NCBI GenBank assembly: GCA_000146465.1
Contig: CP001942.1
DNA length: 64,000 nucleotides
Reading direction: 5' to 3' (one strand)
Position numbers and translations under genes: made by a program. The notes under the pieces were generated by a model. It did no database searches. It was given only the letters and a program-made list of their open reading frames with translations, and was not told the DNA's origin. Of the stretch, positions 1 through 44,809 are shown piece by piece. Every line of letters starts with the position of its first letter. The first letter of the stretch is position 1.

Positions 1-2
1 TA

Positions 3-860
3 CTGGAAAAGTGTTTTGAAGGGCCTTATGATCCGGAACGAAGATATATCATATGTATTCAAGGGCCCACCTCAAGTGGAAAAAGCACGTTTGCAAGGAG
101 ACTTCATGGGCTACTAAATAGAAACGGGATCAACACATATTTGCTTGCGTTAGACTCCTATTACTTCAAACCTATAAACCCAGACCTTGATGAAGAAGAT
201 TACGACTTTGACAATCCGGCTGCACTCGATTGGGAAAGCATCTTCTGTGTTCTGAAGAGACTAAGAGACAAAAGTCCGTTTCTTGAGCACAGAACATACT
301 CTGGATCCACCTATGGGAAGGCCTTTGTTTGGAAGGAGAAAAATTCCATGCCTAATGTTGTAATAATAGAAGGAGTTCAGGGATTCAACACGGTTTGCGA
401 TAAGATTTTCAACATCGAGATGTTTGATCCGTACCACAGTAGTAAGCCCATTGAAGACGAGTTTGTGGACAGATCCCTTGATCTGGGAGACTTCAAGATC
501 CTTAAGATCTTCATGGCAAACTGTGCCTCTAAGGTCCTTTCAGTGAGGCTTAGAAGAGATGAAATGAGGGGAAGAAAGAGAGATGCAATAATTAGAAGGT
601 TTTATTCGAAGACATTACCCAGCATGCTAAGATGGATATATTCCCCGATGTACACCGAGTTCATCAAGGTTATTCATGGAAACTTCAACAGCAAGAAGAT
701 CGAATTGCTTATGAATGAGCTAAGCCTGTATTTCTTTGGAAAAGAGATACCTACAGAAGAGACCAAGGAAATGGACCTCTATCAGGAATTTGGAGTTGAA
801 TGCACTGGGGAGTGCAGGTATGGAGAAGGGCCCTACATTTCTCTAGATGACAAGGTGTAA
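3..860 (+). CDS. Uridine/cytidine kinase (PRK/UK family), 5'-truncated by window edge
   Basis: The frame is open from nt 3 in the same frame as the 141..860 ORF. The upstream translation gives a P-loop, 'ICIQGPTSSGKSTFARRL', typical of uridine kinase. The gene continues upstream of the window. Confidence 0.7.
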   Translation: MEKCFEGPYDPERRYIICIQGPTSSGKSTFARRLHGLLNRNGINTYLLALDSYYFKPINPDLDEEDYDFDNPAALDWESIFCVLKRLRDKSPFLEHRTYSGSTYGKAFVWKEKNSMPNVVIIEGVQGFNTVCDKIFNIEMFDPYHSSKPIEDEFVDRSLDLGDFKILKIFMANCASKVLSVRLRRDEMRGRKRDAIIRRFYSKTLPSMLRWIYSPMYTEFIKVIHGNFNSKKIELLMNELSLYFFGKEIPTEETKEMDLYQEFGVECTGECRYGEGPYISLDDKV

Positions 861-2051: not shown

Positions 2052-3059
2052 ATGAAGAAGATCGTTGCTTATGGGGCCACACATTTCATCCTACTTGCTA
2101 TATACACTATGAAGGTAACTCATGGGAGCTGGACTATGTACAATATCCTTACGACTACAACACGCAACAGCACAGTGCACATCCTCCACGCCACATTTCT
2201 GATTTTCCTGATGTGTTCCTTGGCAGGCTTGGTAATAGATAGAGTGTTCAAAAGCCTCCGGCCCGAGGAGATAAGCAACTTCAACGAGTCTCTGCTCTAT
2301 TTCTTGACCGACTTTCTTCTTGTTGTATCTACGTTTGACAGCGATGTCAGTTTCAGGAATGGTCTTCTCTTTGTTATGCTCCTCTGTGTGAAGTCTCTGA
2401 ACTGGCTGCTGGTCTCAAGGATCAAAAGGAATGTCTATCCCTCCTTGTATGGGCTTGCATATGGGATATCCCTATTCTCTGGGCTTATGGTGGTTTTGTT
2501 CACCCTTTCTTGCATTTCTTCCATCACTGGCCAGATCCTCTTTCTTTTCGAATACACTCTTCTTGTGATTGCCTCTATAAAGAACATATGTGTCATGAAC
2601 TTGATTCAGTCTGATGACGATGGTAAGAGATCTCTGTACAACTTCTATATTGACATAGCCTACATGAGTATCATGCTTCTTGTTTATGCTCTATTCATAG
2701 GAATCACCTCCATCAACTACAGGCTTCCCCTGAATCTCTTCCGGTCTGCATTGACGATATTGGATGCCTTGATTTCGAAGGTTAAGATGTTTCTCAGCTA
2801 TCTCAGACTATGCAAGGAGCTTGAGAAGTGTGTAGAAGGGTCGGGAGATGGCTTCTGTGCAATCTGCAGAGATGATATGGAGGTCGGGAAAAAGCTGGCC
2901 TGTGGGCACTGCTTCCACATCGAATGCCTGAAGATGTGGTGTGAGCAGCAGCAGACATGTCCAATATGCAAGTCCAAGCTTGCCTTCGATGTCAAAAAGG
3001 AGAGTTTTGTTGTGGGAAATGAATACATCTCGGGAATTCCTGTGACAATCGACGGCTAA
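2052..3059 (+). CDS. HRD1: Multi-pass membrane RING-H2 E3 ubiquitin ligase, Hrd1/synoviolin-like
   Basis: Several N-terminal TM helices precede a C-terminal RING-H2, 'CAICRDDM...CGHCFHIECLKMWCEQQQTCPICK'. This matches the Hrd1 consensus 'W..RQQTCP.CR'. The ATG lies 3 nt after the TK stop, in the same frame. Confidence 0.6.
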   Translation: MKKIVAYGATHFILLAIYTMKVTHGSWTMYNILTTTTRNSTVHILHATFLIFLMCSLAGLVIDRVFKSLRPEEISNFNESLLYFLTDFLLVVSTFDSDVSFRNGLLFVMLLCVKSLNWLLVSRIKRNVYPSLYGLAYGISLFSGLMVVLFTLSCISSITGQILFLFEYTLLVIASIKNICVMNLIQSDDDGKRSLYNFYIDIAYMSIMLLVYALFIGITSINYRLPLNLFRSALTILDALISKVKMFLSYLRLCKELEKCVEGSGDGFCAICRDDMEVGKKLACGHCFHIECLKMWCEQQQTCPICKSKLAFDVKKESFVVGNEYISGIPVTIDG

Positions 3060-31350: not shown

Positions 31351-33042
31351 TCACGACTTCCCACGCTCCACAGACGGCTCAAGTATACTTTGAAAAGATG
31401 GCTCGTTGTTTCGGAGATACCCGTAGAAGCTACAGAGATGCCCTTCAACAATCCTTCTCTTCTGTGAAGCTAAGCTCTTGTCCTTCATCGTGTCTGTAAA
31501 TCTGTCCCTAATGTAGACCACCAGTGTTCTTTTTATTTCTGCATTTACATCTTCAGGAAATCGCAGCTCCCTGACTCTTGAAAACAACTTAAGGAGATCG
31601 ACTCCGAAATCTCCACTCTTGGTAACTGTTCCAAAGAGCTTGTCGATCTCTTTTTCCCTCTGTTTTATCACTTCCTCCATAAATCTCTTGTTTCCCTTGT
31701 CTATCTCCGACATACAGTTGAACTCCACATTTCTATAGAAGTCGTTCTTTTCAATGGCATGTCTTAAAACATCTCTGGCAGCTGACTGTCCATCTAAAAA
31801 TAGGTCCATGTTGTCCTTTCCTTCGTCGAGAAGTTTGCATAGATACTGGTCTATCTTCTTTGCGAGAAGCTCATCAAGTTCATTTGAAAACTGGAATATG
31901 TTAGACACAAAGTCATTACACTCGTCAATAAAGCCTGTCATCGAAAGCTTCAGTTGGTCCACCCCGTTGCTTTCAAGATCCACATCCTTAGGCCCTTGCG
32001 TTTCAAAGTAGCCAATCGCCACAGAGCTTATGATTCTATCTACATTCTCGTAGTCGATTCCAAGATGGACTGTAAGCTTTCGGAGAGTAATTAGCATTTT
32101 CCTTACTTGAGAAAAGTTTTGGCTTTCATGAAGCACTTTGCTTTTTGACAGAATCCCAATTACAAGCTGGTTGTGCATCTTAAAGTCTGAATCCAGAGCT
32201 GAAAGATAGTGGCTCCACAGAATAAACCCTGCTGCATCGGAAATCATCAGGGGACTGTTCACTTCTCCAATCCTCTCTCCAAACACTTTTCTCTTCTCAT
32301 TGACTCTCTCTACCACCTTCGACCCAATTCCTAGCCTTTTCGACTCGTGAAGAATGCATAGAAAACTCTTGGATATAAACTGATGTCTTAAAGAGCCAAG
32401 AGGGTCAAATATGTAGGACTTTTCCTTATCCTTCCAGAACATTTCGTTTATTTCCATTCCCACCTGTCGGATATTGTTGGAAGCACTCTTCATCCATAGG
32501 TCAATGTCCTTTATCATCAAGTCTGCAAGTAACTTTCTCGACCTGATGCATATCTGGTTTACATTCACAAAGAACCTGTATTTCTCGAACATACATAGTT
32601 TCTTTTCCATTTCTAGCACGTTCTTTGCCATCTTGTAGTAGTATAGCGGATCCTCCCGGTCCTCCTTGTCTGTTTTCTCGTATTCAAATGCAATATTGAT
32701 GAAGCCGAGAATCTCCTTCATCTCAGATACAACCAGGTTGAGACGGGACTCCACTATGGAGTTCTCCTCAATATCATGGAGAATATTTGCGTGCTGTATA
32801 ACAGCATCAGAAACAGAGCAAAGCAGTTCATTATTTATGTTTACAATTTCTGGCAGCTTTTGCTTGACCTTCTCCAAGTCACTGCATTTGTTAATTATGT
32901 TCATGTAGTCCCGAGAAATGCTCTTCATCATCTCTTTTTCCTTTTTCTCAATCTCTTTGGAAAGCTCTACCAGTAACTCTTCTTTCTTGTCAGACTTTAG
33001 CATCTCTTTGAACCTCTCTTCTTCGTCGGGACTAAAGTTCAT
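31351..33042 (-). CDS. Large alpha-helical hypothetical protein (possible vesicle-tethering/CATCHR-like subunit)
   Basis: The 563-aa protein has an N-terminal coiled coil and then an all-helical body. The assignment is tentative. Confidence 0.35.
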   Translation of the reverse strand: MNFSPDEEERFKEMLKSDKKEELLVELSKEIEKKEKEMMKSISRDYMNIINKCSDLEKVKQKLPEIVNINNELLCSVSDAVIQHANILHDIEENSIVESRLNLVVSEMKEILGFINIAFEYEKTDKEDREDPLYYYKMAKNVLEMEKKLCMFEKYRFFVNVNQICIRSRKLLADLMIKDIDLWMKSASNNIRQVGMEINEMFWKDKEKSYIFDPLGSLRHQFISKSFLCILHESKRLGIGSKVVERVNEKRKVFGERIGEVNSPLMISDAAGFILWSHYLSALDSDFKMHNQLVIGILSKSKVLHESQNFSQVRKMLITLRKLTVHLGIDYENVDRIISSVAIGYFETQGPKDVDLESNGVDQLKLSMTGFIDECNDFVSNIFQFSNELDELLAKKIDQYLCKLLDEGKDNMDLFLDGQSAARDVLRHAIEKNDFYRNVEFNCMSEIDKGNKRFMEEVIKQREKEIDKLFGTVTKSGDFGVDLLKLFSRVRELRFPEDVNAEIKRTLVVYIRDRFTDTMKDKSLASQKRRIVEGHLCSFYGYLRNNEPSFQSILEPSVERGKS

Positions 33043-35081: not shown

Positions 35082-35501
35082 GTTTGGGATGCTATTCCCA
35101 CAGATTTATCTAATCCACTTACATCGAAACAGTCCCCACCCCATGTTCGTCCAAGACCATACATACTACACAGATGCATTTCTGGACGCATGTCTTCTGA
35201 ACTTCGAAAGAATCGAGCTGACCGCCAAGCCGTTCACAAACATAAAGGACGAGGACTTGGAGGAATCCCCAGTTCCTCTCAACAAAGATCATCCCTTCCC
35301 AATAGACTTCGAGCTTACCCCGCGGAATGCCTAACTAGAAGAAAACAAATAATTAAATGAATGTTTATTCTGATTGAAGGAGGGAATGGTATTCTTACAA
35401 TCTGTACGGATGCTTATACATGGTAACGCCATAACCAAACCTCAATGCATCGCCCTTTACCCCATTATCTATGGTCCATTGAATTCTGGATATAGGCGTT
35501 A

Positions 35502-36647
35502 TTACTTTTTTTCATCGTAACATGAATCGCTTGTCAATTCGCTGGTCTCTTCCTTTTCATCGTCGTCGGCTTTCATGCCTTTTTTCCTTCTGTAGTCCTT
35601 GCAGTAATTGATGCATTCTTCCTTCATGCTTGGAGAATCATATCTATCCATGTCTGCACACATCTCCTTTGTGCACGACATCTCTGCCATTTCCGACGAA
35701 TGAGGCCCAGAACCTTGGTTGTCTTCCCCTCCCTTCCATTCACTTGAGGCATCCTCCTTGTATCTTCTGGATCTTCCTCTCCTTCTTCCTCGCCTTGGCC
35801 GGCGCTGCTTGTCCCAGCTCTCTGAAGGACCTTTATTATAAGGTCCACTGGGATTTCCTTGCATCTCCTCAGACTCTTCGCCTCCCTGGCGAGAAGACTT
35901 CTCCTGCCGGTCTAGGATGTTGGTTATGGCTTCGTATTTGCTCTGTTCTATGGGATATATTAGCACCCCAGGCGGAATTCCCTTTCCGGCTCCAAGAGAA
36001 GATATACCATTCTCTTCATTACAACCTTCTTCCCCCCTAGCACATGAGGTCAGGCTTCCAAGCTTGTTTCCTATCTTCTTCAAGCTTCCCTTAAGAGAGT
36101 TTAGCAAGGAATCCTTCAATTGGTCCATATTGAGGTTCTTCAAGATCTCATTTGCAATCTTGTCCTGGCATTTTTTGTCTTTACAACTCTTTTCACCATC
36201 TTCTTCGTTACAGGAGGCGTTCCCTCCGTTGAGCACATCAAGACATTTCTGATCAATACAGCATTCCTTGGCATTTTCCCCAAGTGTTTTCCTGCAATTC
36301 TCTAATATGTTCTTGAACTTCTCGAGCTGTTCAGACAAACACTTCTTAAGCTGTTCTTTTTTCTCAGACATATCACAGACATTTGCGTACTGAATGTTTC
36401 CCGGAGGCTGAAGAGCTAAGGGAGATATCCCCATCTGCTGCCCAACCCCTCCATCAGGCGCAAACGATAGCAGTTGCCCTGGCTTACTTGAAGGAGCACT
36501 GATCGTCTGAACCTGAGGCATGGGGCCTACAAATCCCTGATCAAAAAGAGGTGAGTTCGATGGAAGAATCGAATATAACGGGCTTCCTGCATCTGCCGTC
36601 TCCACATATTTCCAAAGCGTTACCACCAAACTCAATTGCCCTATCAT
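35502..36647 (-). CDS. Cys-rich, low-complexity, putatively secreted protein (candidate spore-wall/polar-tube component)
   Basis: A hydrophobic N-terminus leads into a Pro/Gly/Gln-rich segment. A Cys-rich middle follows ('KECCIDQKC', 'CNEEDGEKSCKDKKCQDK'), then the Arg cluster 'RRPRRGRRRGRSRR' and an acidic Cys-containing tail. Confidence 0.5.
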   Translation of the reverse strand: MIGQLSLVVTLWKYVETADAGSPLYSILPSNSPLFDQGFVGPMPQVQTISAPSSKPGQLLSFAPDGGVGQQMGISPLALQPPGNIQYANVCDMSEKKEQLKKCLSEQLEKFKNILENCRKTLGENAKECCIDQKCLDVLNGGNASCNEEDGEKSCKDKKCQDKIANEILKNLNMDQLKDSLLNSLKGSLKKIGNKLGSLTSCARGEEGCNEENGISSLGAGKGIPPGVLIYPIEQSKYEAITNILDRQEKSSRQGGEESEEMQGNPSGPYNKGPSESWDKQRRPRRGRRRGRSRRYKEDASSEWKGGEDNQGSGPHSSEMAEMSCTKEMCADMDRYDSPSMKEECINYCKDYRRKKGMKADDDEKEETSELTSDSCYDEKK

Positions 36648-36770: not shown

Positions 36771-37691
36771 TTAATACTTCTTCTGAATCTTTGCATAAAA
36801 GAACCCGTCCATGTTGTGCACATGTGGATAGATCCTTCTAGCCATCTTGAGAGACCCGTTGTAGTTTCTTCCCTTGAAACTCATGAATCCATCCTTTCCA
36901 ATGTCTATCTCGCATTGGGCCATTCGGGCGGAAGGACATTTGTTGAGAAGATAATTAACAACCTCCTCGTTTTCCTTGACAAGCACAGAACATGTCGAGT
37001 ACATCAGTATCCCTCCAGGCCTCAGCATCTCAAATCCATGAAGTATCAGTTCTTTCTGAAGCGTAACCATTCTATCTATCTCACTTCTTGTTCTGTTGGT
37101 CTTCACTGACGGATCCTTCGATATCACTCCGGTCCCAGAACACGGTGCATCCACCAGAACCCTATCTACCTTTCCAACATTCACCTTCCTTCCGTCCATG
37201 TTCATTATTATGCAGTTCTTCACCCCCATTCTCTGTACGTTGCTCTTTAATCCTGCTATTCTCTCCTCGTTCATATCGTTTGCATAGATCGTCCCTGTGT
37301 TTTCCATAAGTGCAGCAATGTGTGTTGTCTTCCCCCCAGGTGCTGCGCACAAATCAACAACAGTCAGACCCTCTTTGAGCTCCATGTTAAGGACCGGGAG
37401 CATCGATGCAGCTCCTTGAAGACAATAGTATCCGGCAAGATACTCGGGCGTGGCCCCAATAGGAACAGAGGACTTGAAGATAACACATCCGCTGTCTGTC
37501 CAGCTGAGATCGTCAATATCCACACCCCTTCCACGTAAGAGCTTCGACACGTCTTTTCTACGCTTCAAAAGCGTATTGATTCGTATCGTTGTAGGCCTTT
37601 GCTTTTCGCTCTCCTCAATAAAAACCTCTGCCTCTTTACGTGGAAACAACTCGCATATCTTCTCCAGAAGATACTCGTTGTACGTATCCAT
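36771..37691 (-). CDS. NOL1/NOP2/Sun-family RNA (cytosine-C5)-methyltransferase
   Basis: The SAM-binding motif 'VDLCAAPGGKTTHIA' is present with catalytic Cys motifs ('DAPCSGTG', 'YSTCS'). Confidence 0.75.
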   Translation of the reverse strand: MDTYNEYLLEKICELFPRKEAEVFIEESEKQRPTTIRINTLLKRRKDVSKLLRGRGVDIDDLSWTDSGCVIFKSSVPIGATPEYLAGYYCLQGAASMLPVLNMELKEGLTVVDLCAAPGGKTTHIAALMENTGTIYANDMNEERIAGLKSNVQRMGVKNCIIMNMDGRKVNVGKVDRVLVDAPCSGTGVISKDPSVKTNRTRSEIDRMVTLQKELILHGFEMLRPGGILMYSTCSVLVKENEEVVNYLLNKCPSARMAQCEIDIGKDGFMSFKGRNYNGSLKMARRIYPHVHNMDGFFYAKIQKKY

Positions 37692-43411: not shown

Positions 43412-44809
43412 CTACTCCGTCTTGTTATTGATTCTTTTTAAGAGTTTCTCCATGGATAGCATCGGAAGCTTTTTTCTTTTACTGCTAAGAAGTGCTGGTA
43501 ATGGCCATAGAATAGAATCCTCGTAGTTACTGGTGGCGCTGTCTTCTACAACACGAGCATCGCTTATTATGCGACTCTTCAACGTGTAAGGGTCGTAGTT
43601 GTAGTATGTAAGATATGCAGCCATGACTCCTGTGGTGTGTGGAGCAGCCATGGATGTCCCGGAAACAATCTTTTGGGTTCCCCCTGTCCAGGAGCTGAGT
43701 ATGTCTACACCAGGAGCAAAGATGTTCACACACTCTCCAAAGTTGCTGAAGAACGCAATGGTATCTCTGTATGTCGACGCGCCTGTTGTTATGCTTGCCT
43801 TCGAAGATCCAGGTGAGAAGTCGCATGCATCCTCATGCTCGTTTCCTGCAGCAGTCGAAAAGTGGATTCCTAGCTTCGATGCATACTCAATTGCAAAGTT
43901 GAGTGCAGCGTTCCTGAATCCTCCAACACTGAGGTTAACAATTGTTTTTGGTTGCAAGGCCTTCTCTGAAACAATGTCTACCAGGTGCTGTATTGAAGGA
44001 GGTTCAGGGCGGATGAAGGAAAAGCTCTCGGAGCCATCTATCTCCACCTCAATATCAGAAGACCCGCTGGAATTGAGATACTTATCTGCTGCAGCTTCAT
44101 AGAGTTTGTCTTTTTTCCTTTCATGCTCCTTAATGACAAAGTCCACTCCTTGCAGAAGCCTCGAAGTCATCCCAGATCCATACTTGTCAAGAACCTTGAC
44201 GGCTATGATCTTTGACTCCTTGGATATTCCAAAGTTCTTCCCGCCAATCACTCCTGCGCAATGTGTTCCATGCCCATGGTCATCTCCATCCTGGCTTTCT
44301 GGGACAAAGTTGGCACCCCATCTGGCTCTTCCTTCAAATTCAGGATGATCGATCTCCACCCCCGTATCCAGAACATACACGTCAACACCCTCTCCAGAGT
44401 TGACAGGATAGCAATAGCTTCTCTGGACCAAAGACATACTTCCTGCTACCCTGGCAAGGCCCCACGGTGCATGTCTTTGCATTAGAATACTGCCTTTCTC
44501 GTTGTTATTAAGGTCTCCAAGCTTCAGCCTACTGATTCTTACAGAACTATCTTCTACAACCATTTTCACATTTGGGTGTTTCCTCATTCTTTCGGCTGGA
44601 GTATCGCTCATGCGAGCTACGAATCCATTGGTCATCTTTATTCCGATGGTTTCGTTGGGGCCAAGAATCCTTTGTGCCTCCAGGATGTTTATATTGTACA
44701 ATGCATTCATGGATGCCCTGTCCATTCTTGGATCCTGATCAAACATTACAATATAATCCCTCGCTTCCTTGCACAATACTAAAGATAGAAGTGTAATTCC
44801 GAAGATCAT
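43412..44809 (-). CDS. Subtilisin-like serine protease (S8) with signal peptide
   Basis: The catalytic triad motifs are 'VLDTGV' (Asp), 'HGTHCAGVIGG' (His) and 'GTSMAAPHTTG' (Ser). The N-terminal signal is 'MIFGITLLSLVLC'. Confidence 0.8.
   Translation of the reverse strand: MIFGITLLSLVLCKEARDYIVMFDQDPRMDRASMNALYNINILEAQRILGPNETIGIKMTNGFVARMSDTPAERMRKHPNVKMVVEDSSVRISRLKLGDLNNNEKGSILMQRHAPWGLARVAGSMSLVQRSYCYPVNSGEGVDVYVLDTGVEIDHPEFEGRARWGANFVPESQDGDDHGHGTHCAGVIGGKNFGISKESKIIAVKVLDKYGSGMTSRLLQGVDFVIKEHERKKDKLYEAAADKYLNSSGSSDIEVEIDGSESFSFIRPEPPSIQHLVDIVSEKALQPKTIVNLSVGGFRNAALNFAIEYASKLGIHFSTAAGNEHEDACDFSPGSSKASITTGASTYRDTIAFFSNFGECVNIFAPGVDILSSWTGGTQKIVSGTSMAAPHTTGVMAAYLTYYNYDPYTLKSRIISDARVVEDSATSNYEDSILWPLPALLSSKRKKLPMLSMEKLLKRINNKTE

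Follow-up and report, generated by a model that had tools for sequence, protein, structure and literature searches.

Eint_010980 of Encephalitozoon intestinalis and a microsporidia-specific family of predicted secreted proteins with a six-cysteine core

We analysed a stretch of 64,000 nucleotides from contig CP001942.1 of Encephalitozoon intestinalis ATCC 50506 (GenBank assembly GCA_000146465.1; hereafter the window), a parasite that infects humans, and concentrated on Eint_010980, a gene annotated as 'uncharacterized'. Comparison of protein sequences indicates that Eint_010980 is the single-copy orthologue of a microsporidia-specific, so far unnamed family of secreted proteins, and we suggest, with a probability of roughly 0.6, that its product is secreted and becomes cross-linked by disulfides into the invasion apparatus or the wall of the spore. 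We regard it as established that the family is single-copy, syntenic and phylum-wide and carries a defined six-cysteine module, that one orthologue is a real spore protein present in a disulfide-bonded fraction, and that an arginine block in the E. intestinalis protein is a recent, duplication-driven feature of this one species. The annotation of the gene was already known, whereas the family, the six-cysteine module and the linkage to NOP2 are new to the literature and domain databases that we searched. Phylum-wide secreted proteins specific to microsporidia are few, and the known ones, the polar tube proteins (PTPs) and some spore wall proteins (SWPs), build the structures of cell invasion. 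Eint_010980 is thus a well-delimited candidate for experimentalists.

The gene, its coding strand and its family

The minus-strand open reading frame (ORF) of Eint_010980 runs from ATG to stop over 381 amino acids (aa; Table 1), and its product is 100% identical to ADM10960.1 and to three other E. intestinalis accessions. Its orthologues are EHEL_010950 in E. hellem (71% identity), EROM_010870 in E. romaleae (70%) and ECU01_1070 in E. cuniculi (Q8SWJ8; 67%). A preliminary description of the locus, made from the letters of the DNA, had quoted a series of strings from this ORF, all of which we find in the order and at the positions given, and had remarked that the opposite strand also holds long ORFs. 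Such ORFs exist (136, 111 and 61 aa on the plus strand, the two longer ones overlapping the region), but they lack conservation: the longest antisense open stretches have 136/142 codons in E. intestinalis and 144 in E. hellem, and that of E. cuniculi, of 287 codons, lies in another frame. The minus-strand frame, on the other hand, is conserved in the related genomes and is a genuine gene under purifying selection. Aligned by codon against its E. hellem and E. cuniculi counterparts, the gene has a ratio of nonsynonymous to synonymous substitution rates (dN/dS) of 0.09–0.13, the third codon position dominates the differences between orthologues (e.g., 57/49/173 over the three positions), and the indels near the arginine block of the Encephalitozoon orthologues all keep the frame. 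The idea that the minus-strand ORF is spurious, and that the real gene, or none, lies on the plus strand, is refuted by this dN/dS of about 0.1 and by the shifts in frame and length of the antisense stretches between species, as well as by nine homologues found at the protein level and 27 by profile and by the detection of peptides of the E. hellem orthologue by mass spectrometry.

The sense strand of Eint_010980 is 61% purine, a bias that would make antisense stop codons scarce, so that the antisense ORFs are presumably by-products of it. Across the whole window both GC skew and AT skew follow gene orientation, being negative (plus strand) over the run of minus-strand genes at ~30–42 kb and positive over the plus-strand genes at 46–52 kb. 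Coding strands are thus purine-rich, which would also explain why long spurious antisense ORFs are common in the window.

The extent of the family emerged from a profile built on the first nine homologues of Eint_010980 and searched against 1.84 billion representative proteins. This search returned 27 proteins, 25 of them below 1e-10, and in all 27 the six-cysteine core was the best-matching stretch; repeat homologue searches with the core alignment and with the family alignment added nothing beyond these members. Named members occur in Ordospora colligata and O. pajunii, Trachipleistophora hominis (THOM_2374), Spraguea lophii (SLOPH_900), Hamiltosporidium species, Antonospora locustae, Astathelohania contejeani, Gurleya vavrai, Binucleata daphniae and Nosema granulosis, and in every genome checked they are labelled 'hypothetical' or 'uncharacterized'. 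Neither Eint_010980 nor any of 25 core sequences has a Pfam match above cut-off, and we found no PDB chain related by sequence and no fold match. The UniRef entry of the E. hellem orthologue, A0A9Q9C6P6_ENCHE, is named 'Seminal fluid protein', a name for which we see neither sequence, profile nor fold support and which looks like an over-transferred annotation.

Alignment gives most members a length of 220–330 aa and a common layout. A signal-peptide-like N-terminus, hydrophobic in nearly all members, is followed by an N[LF][TA]PG.[FY]FP motif and a low-complexity Q/P/N/S region, then by the six-cysteine core, usually preceded by SP…QPP, an amphipathic SL.EFL.FLKK.L helix and a charged tail with K/R clusters; C.DPC[DE] stands at or near the C-terminus of many, not all, of the distant members. 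The core conforms to C-x(11-12)-C-x14-C-x(9-10)-C-C-x4-C with the flanks QPP…CD and ENC[RK]K.LG, and Eint_010980 fits this family-wide pattern. Its first, second, third, fourth and sixth cysteines are invariant in 25–26 aligned sequences, while a few have another residue at the fifth (the second C of CC). The version found in Encephalitozoon and Ordospora is longer, with extra cysteines, a GVLIYP.EQSKYEAITNIL motif and, at its end, a CT.EMC…EC..YCKDYRRK…LTSDSC module. It had been proposed that the spacing of the cysteines be compared across Encephalitozoon species, and that comparison bears the pattern out: four species keep 16/16 of the cysteines, and in 11 sequences of the Encephalitozoon/Ordospora clade, down to 33% identity, 12/16 are invariant, among them C325, C330, C345, C349 and C376.

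The position of the gene is conserved as well. It lies directly downstream of a NOP2/Sun gene in the window, in E. cuniculi, E. hellem and T. hominis, in a relative (contig L004) and in a distant microsporidian (contig L007); in G. vavrai the two genes adjoin with the family gene inverted, while A. locustae and B. daphniae have lost the linkage, as has one metagenomic contig. As the core motif furthermore occurs only once in the window, this linkage points to one ancient orthologous gene and not to a shuffled domain.

Protein architecture and the arginine block

The mature protein has a predicted mass of ~40 kDa and an isoelectric point (pI) of ~5.4. Its 16 cysteines (4.2%) place it among the top handful of the ~50 ORFs in the window, which is not extreme. 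The layout is given in Table 1.

Table 1. Features of Eint_010980, its upstream neighbour and the corresponding basic patches of its orthologues (window coordinates)
Feature	Residues (aa)	Coordinates	Strand	Sequence or motif	Basis or remark
Complete coding sequence, Eint_010980	1-381	35502..36647	-		381 aa + stop at 35502-35504; identity to ADM10960.1, dN/dS
Signal-peptide-like N-terminus	1 to ~20	36588..36647	-	hydrophobic core LSLVVTLW	hydropathy
Start of hydrophobic N-terminus	1-12			MIGQLSLVVTLW	
Cys-free, nearly uncharged P/G/S/Q-rich region	21-90	36378..36587	-		P 16%, G 13%, S 13%, Q 11%
Six-Cys core, family-defining	91-135	36243..36377	-	CDMSEKKEQLKKCLSEQLEKFKNILENCRKTLGENAKECCIDQKC	C-x11-C-x14-C-x10-CC-x4-C
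String within six-Cys core	127-135			KECCIDQKC	
Clade-specific extension	136-210	36018..36242	-	…IANEILKNLNMDQLKDSLLNSLKGSLKKIGNKLGSLTSC…	five more Cys, Lys-rich helices
String within clade-specific extension	146-163			CNEEDGEKSCKDKKCQDK	
Acidic linker	211-280	35808..36017	-	conserved GVLIYPIEQSKYEAITNIL motif	net charge -5; alignments
Arg block	282-295	35763..35804	-	RRPRRGRRRGRSRR	translation; lies where the protein evolves fastest
12-nt tandem duplication, 2.1 copies		35772..35796		AGGCGAGGAAGA / AGGAGAGGAAGA on coding strand	Tandem Repeats Finder
Acidic tail with Cys	324-381	35505..35678	-	C-x4-C … C-x3-C … LTSDSC-YDEKK	five Cys
String within acidic tail	324-351			SCTKEMCADMD...CINYCKD	
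Basic patch at Arg-block site, E. hellem				PRRGDRRRARGAKR	
Basic patch at Arg-block site, E. romaleae				PRRESREGRRKRPRGTKR	
Basic patch at Arg-block site, E. cuniculi				PKRRGRRSRKARLRNR	
NOL1/NOP2/Sun (RsmB/F) methyltransferase, upstream neighbour		36771..37691	-		Pfam PF01189, E = 4.8e-66

Cleavage of the putative signal peptide is likely to fall near VET/AD or ADA/GS, and the aligned N-termini of the orthologues end in small-residue patterns (AEA/TD, VKA/TD, VGA/TD). Beyond the N-terminus the protein has no other hydrophobic or transmembrane segment, the maximum Kyte–Doolittle hydropathy over 19 residues (KD19) being 0.97. A glycosylphosphatidylinositol (GPI) anchor was considered, and the hydrophilic C-terminus argues otherwise; a C-terminus of the type that mediates retention in the endoplasmic reticulum (ER) was set aside, as the alignment does not keep it across the family.

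The Pro/Gly/Gln-rich stretch that had been noticed behind the N-terminus is present and devoid of cysteine, with the composition listed in Table 1. Its predicted local distance difference test (pLDDT) score is below 50, and it ends with a conserved SP...QPPGN.QYAN motif in which QPP is nearly invariant across the family. Residues 91–210, which follow, hold 11 cysteines amid predicted helices rich in Lys, Leu and Glu. In the core a long and a short helix are predicted, with pLDDT 67–81, and in the clade-specific extension helices at 158–171 and 174–200; the counterpart of this extension in other microsporidia is the SL.EFL.FLKK.L helix.

The arginine block, which had been singled out as a polyarginine feature, is real. 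Within 14 residues it gathers 10/17 of the arginines of the protein, a density reached in 0/20,000 shuffles, so that it is no chance feature, and residues 281–296 are 62% Arg with a net charge of +10. It does not, however, stand up as a conserved hallmark of the protein, and what is kept is a basic patch at the level of the genus (Table 1). The proportion of nonsynonymous differences (pN) is 0.38–0.45 at this region against ~0.1 elsewhere in the protein. An acidic, Trp-containing segment that follows the patch in the other Encephalitozoon species is missing in E. intestinalis, and beyond the genus the site can no longer be aligned. The coding sequence of the block contains the 12-nucleotide (nt) duplication of Table 1 (92% match, score 43), which yields RRGR-RRGR. 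We therefore read the block as an E. intestinalis-specific, duplication-densified form of the genus-level basic patch and not as a family feature, although K/R clusters (at least 6 in 12 residues) do occur downstream of the core in most family members. As an observation in its own right, the duplication is a case of a purine-rich micro-duplication, in a very compact genome, that gives rise to a homopolymer-like block of amino acids.

A positionally conserved heparin-binding motif of the Cardin-Weintraub type was also looked for and is not apparent. The protein contains one XBBXBX match (SRRYKE, aa 293–298) and no XBBBXXBX match, the matches in the orthologues lie elsewhere, and the consensus is much less basic than the arginine block.

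Evidence from spores, the proposed role and its alternatives

The experimental evidence on this family at the protein level comes from E. hellem. Han et al. (2019; mBio, PMC6703431) disrupted E. hellem spores, cross-linked the pellet insoluble in sodium dodecyl sulfate (SDS) with the thiol-cleavable reagent dithiobis(succinimidyl propionate) (DSP), gave it five washes in 1% SDS and one in 9 M urea, and released material with 2% dithiothreitol (DTT) for liquid chromatography coupled to tandem mass spectrometry (LC-MS/MS). The DTT fraction, which was used to prepare PTPs, contained ~300 'hypothetical' proteins, 22 of them with a predicted signal peptide, and EHEL_010950 is entry 4/22 in their Table S1, at 43.6 kDa and with 'Signal Peptide: Yes'; PTP2, PTP3, PTP4, EnP1 and SSP1 were found in the same fraction (PMC6703431). 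Sera were reportedly raised to all 18 unknowns, including EHEL_010950, and only the result for SSP1 was published (PMC6703431). Disulfide-bonded material of the polar tube is classically recognised by its solubility in DTT (PMC7040029). The E. hellem orthologue is thus shown to be translated, to be present in mature spores and to reside in SDS- and urea-resistant material released by DTT, and its positive signal-peptide score agrees with the hydrophobic, signal-peptide-like N-terminus that had been pointed out in Eint_010980.

Taken together with the conservation of the cysteines and with this N-terminus, the recovery of the orthologue from the DTT-released, SDS/urea-insoluble spore fraction fits the general class of secreted spore proteins. 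The expectation that the protein would be of spore wall or polar tube type therefore holds in so far as the data agree with a secreted protein of the microsporidian spore that stands apart from the neighbouring housekeeping genes, but not in the sense of membership in any of the named SWP or PTP families that we checked.

We suggest that, during sporogony, a signal peptide of ~17–20 aa would direct the protein into the secretory route, and that the helical core, with its long and its short helix stapled by intramolecular disulfides, would form a folded module. The remaining conserved cysteines, including the one near the C-terminus, could make further intra- or intermolecular disulfides and so tie the protein into a cross-linked matrix, be it the polar tube, the anchoring disc or the endospore/inner wall. 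The cysteine-free P/G/S/Q segment and the charged C-terminal half might serve as flexible spacers or interaction regions. The basic patch would most plausibly make electrostatic contacts with polyanions, either acidic spore partners or, once exposed, host sulfated glycans; here we draw on the analogy of the heparin-binding motifs of EnP1 and of other spore proteins with such motifs. The conserved function of the protein does not centre on the arginine block itself.

Several observations weigh against such a role, or at least against a prominent one. The signal peptide of Eint_010980 was called by visual inspection and by reference to the orthologue, the hydrophobic region is short (8–11 aa) and the n-region carries no positive charge. 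Confidence in the structural models is low (pLDDT 41.7 for the full length, 59.8 for the core), and the disulfide-stapled hairpin is only predicted. With its ~300 'hypothetical' proteins, the DTT fraction is unselective and makes weak evidence for residence in tube or wall. In E. cuniculi, ECU01_1070 reached 78, 111 and 133 FPKM (fragments per kilobase and per million mapped reads) at 24, 48 and 72 hours post-infection (hpi), compared with 9,119, 24,265 and 23,714 for EnP1 (ECU01_0820), and reported fold-changes were 2.05–2.45 for PTP1 and PTP2 and 1.55 for SWP1 (Grisdale et al., 2013; PMC3629993, Additional file 1). The rise of ECU01_1070 from 24 to 72 h (log2 ~0.8) has the same direction as that of the spore genes but is weaker than that of PTP1, PTP2 or SWP1 (1.55–2.45), and its transcript stands ~100–200-fold below that of EnP1, at a level typical of housekeeping neighbours, which argues against a bulk structural protein and would suit a minor component or one with no structural role. 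Text searches for family members in the supplements of the T. hominis spore proteome and the S. lophii secretome, and by core-motif strings in those of the A. algerae polar tube proteome, found none; a text search of the supplements of Nakjang 2013 likewise returned no family member. Searching open-access main texts by identifier, we found no publication on the localisation of any family member, and in the open-access literature searched the family is mentioned only in the supplements of Grisdale 2013 and Han 2019.

The low and nearly flat expression, similar to that of the housekeeping neighbours, would also suit a protein of the secretory pathway, of the sporoplasm surface or of the lumen of a vacuole, for instance an assembly factor of tube or wall, that was a minor passenger in the unselective DTT fraction. 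SSP1, the sole protein characterised from the same 22, did turn out to be a surface protein of sporoplasm and meront and not of tube or wall. We nevertheless consider this unlikely, since the orthologue survived five washes in 1% SDS and one in 9 M urea and needed DTT for its release (a thiol-cleavable cross-linker being used as well), and since neither a membrane anchor nor a family-conserved ER-retention-type C-terminus is present. Still less probable, in our view, is a host-directed effector that would be secreted by the intracellular stages and carried into the host cell or nucleus by the arginine block, acting as a nuclear localisation signal (NLS) or as a cell-penetrating signal of the Tat/oligo-arginine type. 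The combination of a signal peptide with a dense basic block would suit such a protein, ECU01_1070 is transcribed as early as 24 hpi, ahead of spore formation, and the rapid evolution of the basic region could equally reflect interaction with the host; E. hellem EnP1, which has a signal peptide and NLSs and enters the host nucleus, provides a precedent (PMC11348272). However, the proximity-labelling screen of host nuclei in cells infected with E. hellem brought EnP1 and EnP2 to the fore, not EHEL_010950 (PMC11348272). The basic patch is furthermore not conserved beyond the genus, whereas the cysteine core is, so that the conserved function would lie outside the patch, and 16 conserved cysteines together with DTT-extractable retention in the spore look more like a component of an extracellular matrix.

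Least probable among the alternatives with any standing is a proprotein that a subtilisin/kexin-type protease would cleave at the multibasic block into a core fragment of ~28 kDa and a Cys-rich acidic peptide of ~10 kDa, a reading that is pure inference. Six overlapping RR dibasic sites do lie in a linker predicted to be disordered and exposed, and a secreted subtilase (Peptidase_S8 with an I9 propeptide) is encoded in the window, but this subtilase does not match the P-domain family that marks kexins, and the density of dibasic sites varies widely among the orthologues (KR/RR counts of 1–10). Such cleavage is compatible with the mechanism we favor, a disulfide-cross-linked component of invasion apparatus or wall, and does not exclude it.

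Within the reading of a cross-linked spore component, we tentatively raise a bolder possibility, one we would rather doubt than defend: the family could be an ancient, unrecognised core component of the invasion apparatus, a further polar tube or anchoring-disc protein whose six-cysteine module would be a new disulfide-stapled fold. In that case its conservation would reach from Trachipleistophora and Spraguea to Encephalitozoon, and it would have been missed owing to its divergence. A comparison of eleven genomes in 2013 recognised only two core families that are microsporidia-specific and bear signal peptides, PTP2 and one spore wall family (PMC3879972). If true, such a family would be a prime handle on the assembly of the tube.

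Neighbouring genes and comparison with known systems

Other genes of the window deserve mention. In the 420-bp gap between Eint_010980 and the gene for an XPB helicase lies a plus-strand ORF of 63 aa at 35143..35334 (MFVQDHTYYTDAFLDACLL…FPIDFELTPRNA), with clear orthologues annotated in the corresponding position in E. cuniculi (73 aa), E. hellem (57 aa) and a relative (63 aa); its product has no Pfam match. Beyond the helicase gene, on the side away from Eint_010980, a minus-strand ORF of 563 aa (31351..33042), also with no Pfam match, is conserved in position in E. cuniculi and E. hellem (563 aa each). The subtilisin-like protease is encoded at 43412..44809 (minus strand), combines Peptidase_S8 with an Inhibitor_I9 propeptide and has a signal-peptide-like N-terminus, MIFGITLLSLVLC. 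The distant microsporidian contig L007, too, has a subtilase gene close to its family member, suggesting that the conserved neighbourhood extends further. A plus-strand ORF of 335 aa at 2052..3059 encodes a synoviolin/Hrd1-like tetratricopeptide repeat (TPR) region and a RING-H2 finger, which account for its 4.2% Cys, and despite its hydrophobic N-terminus we take the predicted product to be an E3 ligase of the ER-associated degradation (ERAD) type and not a secreted Cys-rich protein.

A further Cys-rich ORF, of 348 aa and 7.2% Cys, is found at 8790..9836 (minus strand), with the N-terminus MKLLGLLISAFGAINALK and no Pfam match. Its size equals that of the published EiEnP1 (1047 nt / 348 aa), and it is the probable E. 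intestinalis orthologue of EnP1, an endospore/anchoring-disc protein with heparin-binding motifs. The preliminary description called the product of Eint_010980 the second Cys-rich protein, and this ORF is probably the 'first' one implied.

We asked whether Eint_010980 belongs to a named family of spore proteins, and none of those checked was found to accommodate it. It is not an EnP1 paralogue: in BLASTP against the product of 8790..9836 the best E was 0.76, and EnP1 (EHEL_010690) is listed apart from EHEL_010950. Membership among the PTPs was judged by locus identity, and on this basis Eint_010980 matches no named PTP locus: PTP2 (EHEL_060160), PTP3 (EHEL_111330), PTP4 (EHEL_071080) and SSP1 are separate entries in Table S1 of Han et al. 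(2019), and PTP6 is Eint_081680, at another locus. The AlocSWP2/EnP2 (SWP3) family has four conserved cysteines and a GPI signal, where Eint_010980 has a hydrophilic C-terminus instead, and its published Encephalitozoon members, Q8SWG8 and E0S5M3, differ from Q8SWJ8/ADM10960. In the tables of known SWPs and PTPs of a 2020 review, the only entries from chromosome I are ECU01_0820 and ECU01_1270.

EnP1 is nevertheless a close parallel, being microsporidia-specific, Cys-rich, of ~350–380 aa and encoded on chromosome I, with a signal peptide and basic clusters, and it turned up in the DTT-released E. hellem spore fraction that also yielded EHEL_010950. The two differ in that EnP1 is basic (reported pI ~8.8–9.1, against ~5.4 for mature Eint_010980) and shares no sequence similarity, in that its heparin-binding motifs and NLSs have been tested experimentally whereas Eint_010980 is known from sequence and orthologue data, and in their range: review tables name homologues of EnP1 only in Encephalitozoon, while the Eint_010980 family spans distant microsporidian lineages. 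EhSSP1 (EHEL_111090) came from the same screen and was likewise a signal-peptide-bearing 'hypothetical' protein until an antibody was made, but it was localised to the surface of sporoplasm and meront, with PTP4 and host VDAC as partners.

PTP1 and PTP2 resemble the present family in being secreted, in keeping the positions of their cysteines despite rapid divergence, in their release by reducing agents only and in their low-complexity Pro- or Lys-rich segments. For both, micro-synteny helps to find orthologues, through the ptp1-ptp2 cluster in one case and the NOP2 linkage in the other. They differ in locus, and the induction of ECU01_1070 in sporogony is much weaker than that of PTP1 and PTP2. 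NbSWP25, NbSWP26 and AlocSWP2 are, like Eint_010980, small secreted spore proteins with a few conserved cysteines and with basic motifs, which in these SWPs are thought to bind sulfated glycosaminoglycans of the host. Eint_010980 differs from such heparin-binding SWPs in having a single XBBXBX match at a position that is not conserved, and AlocSWP2 and its Encephalitozoon homologues are other proteins. In conclusion, Eint_010980 fits the known pattern of fast-evolving, cysteine-stabilised spore proteins of microsporidia, a finding that is useful, if not surprising.

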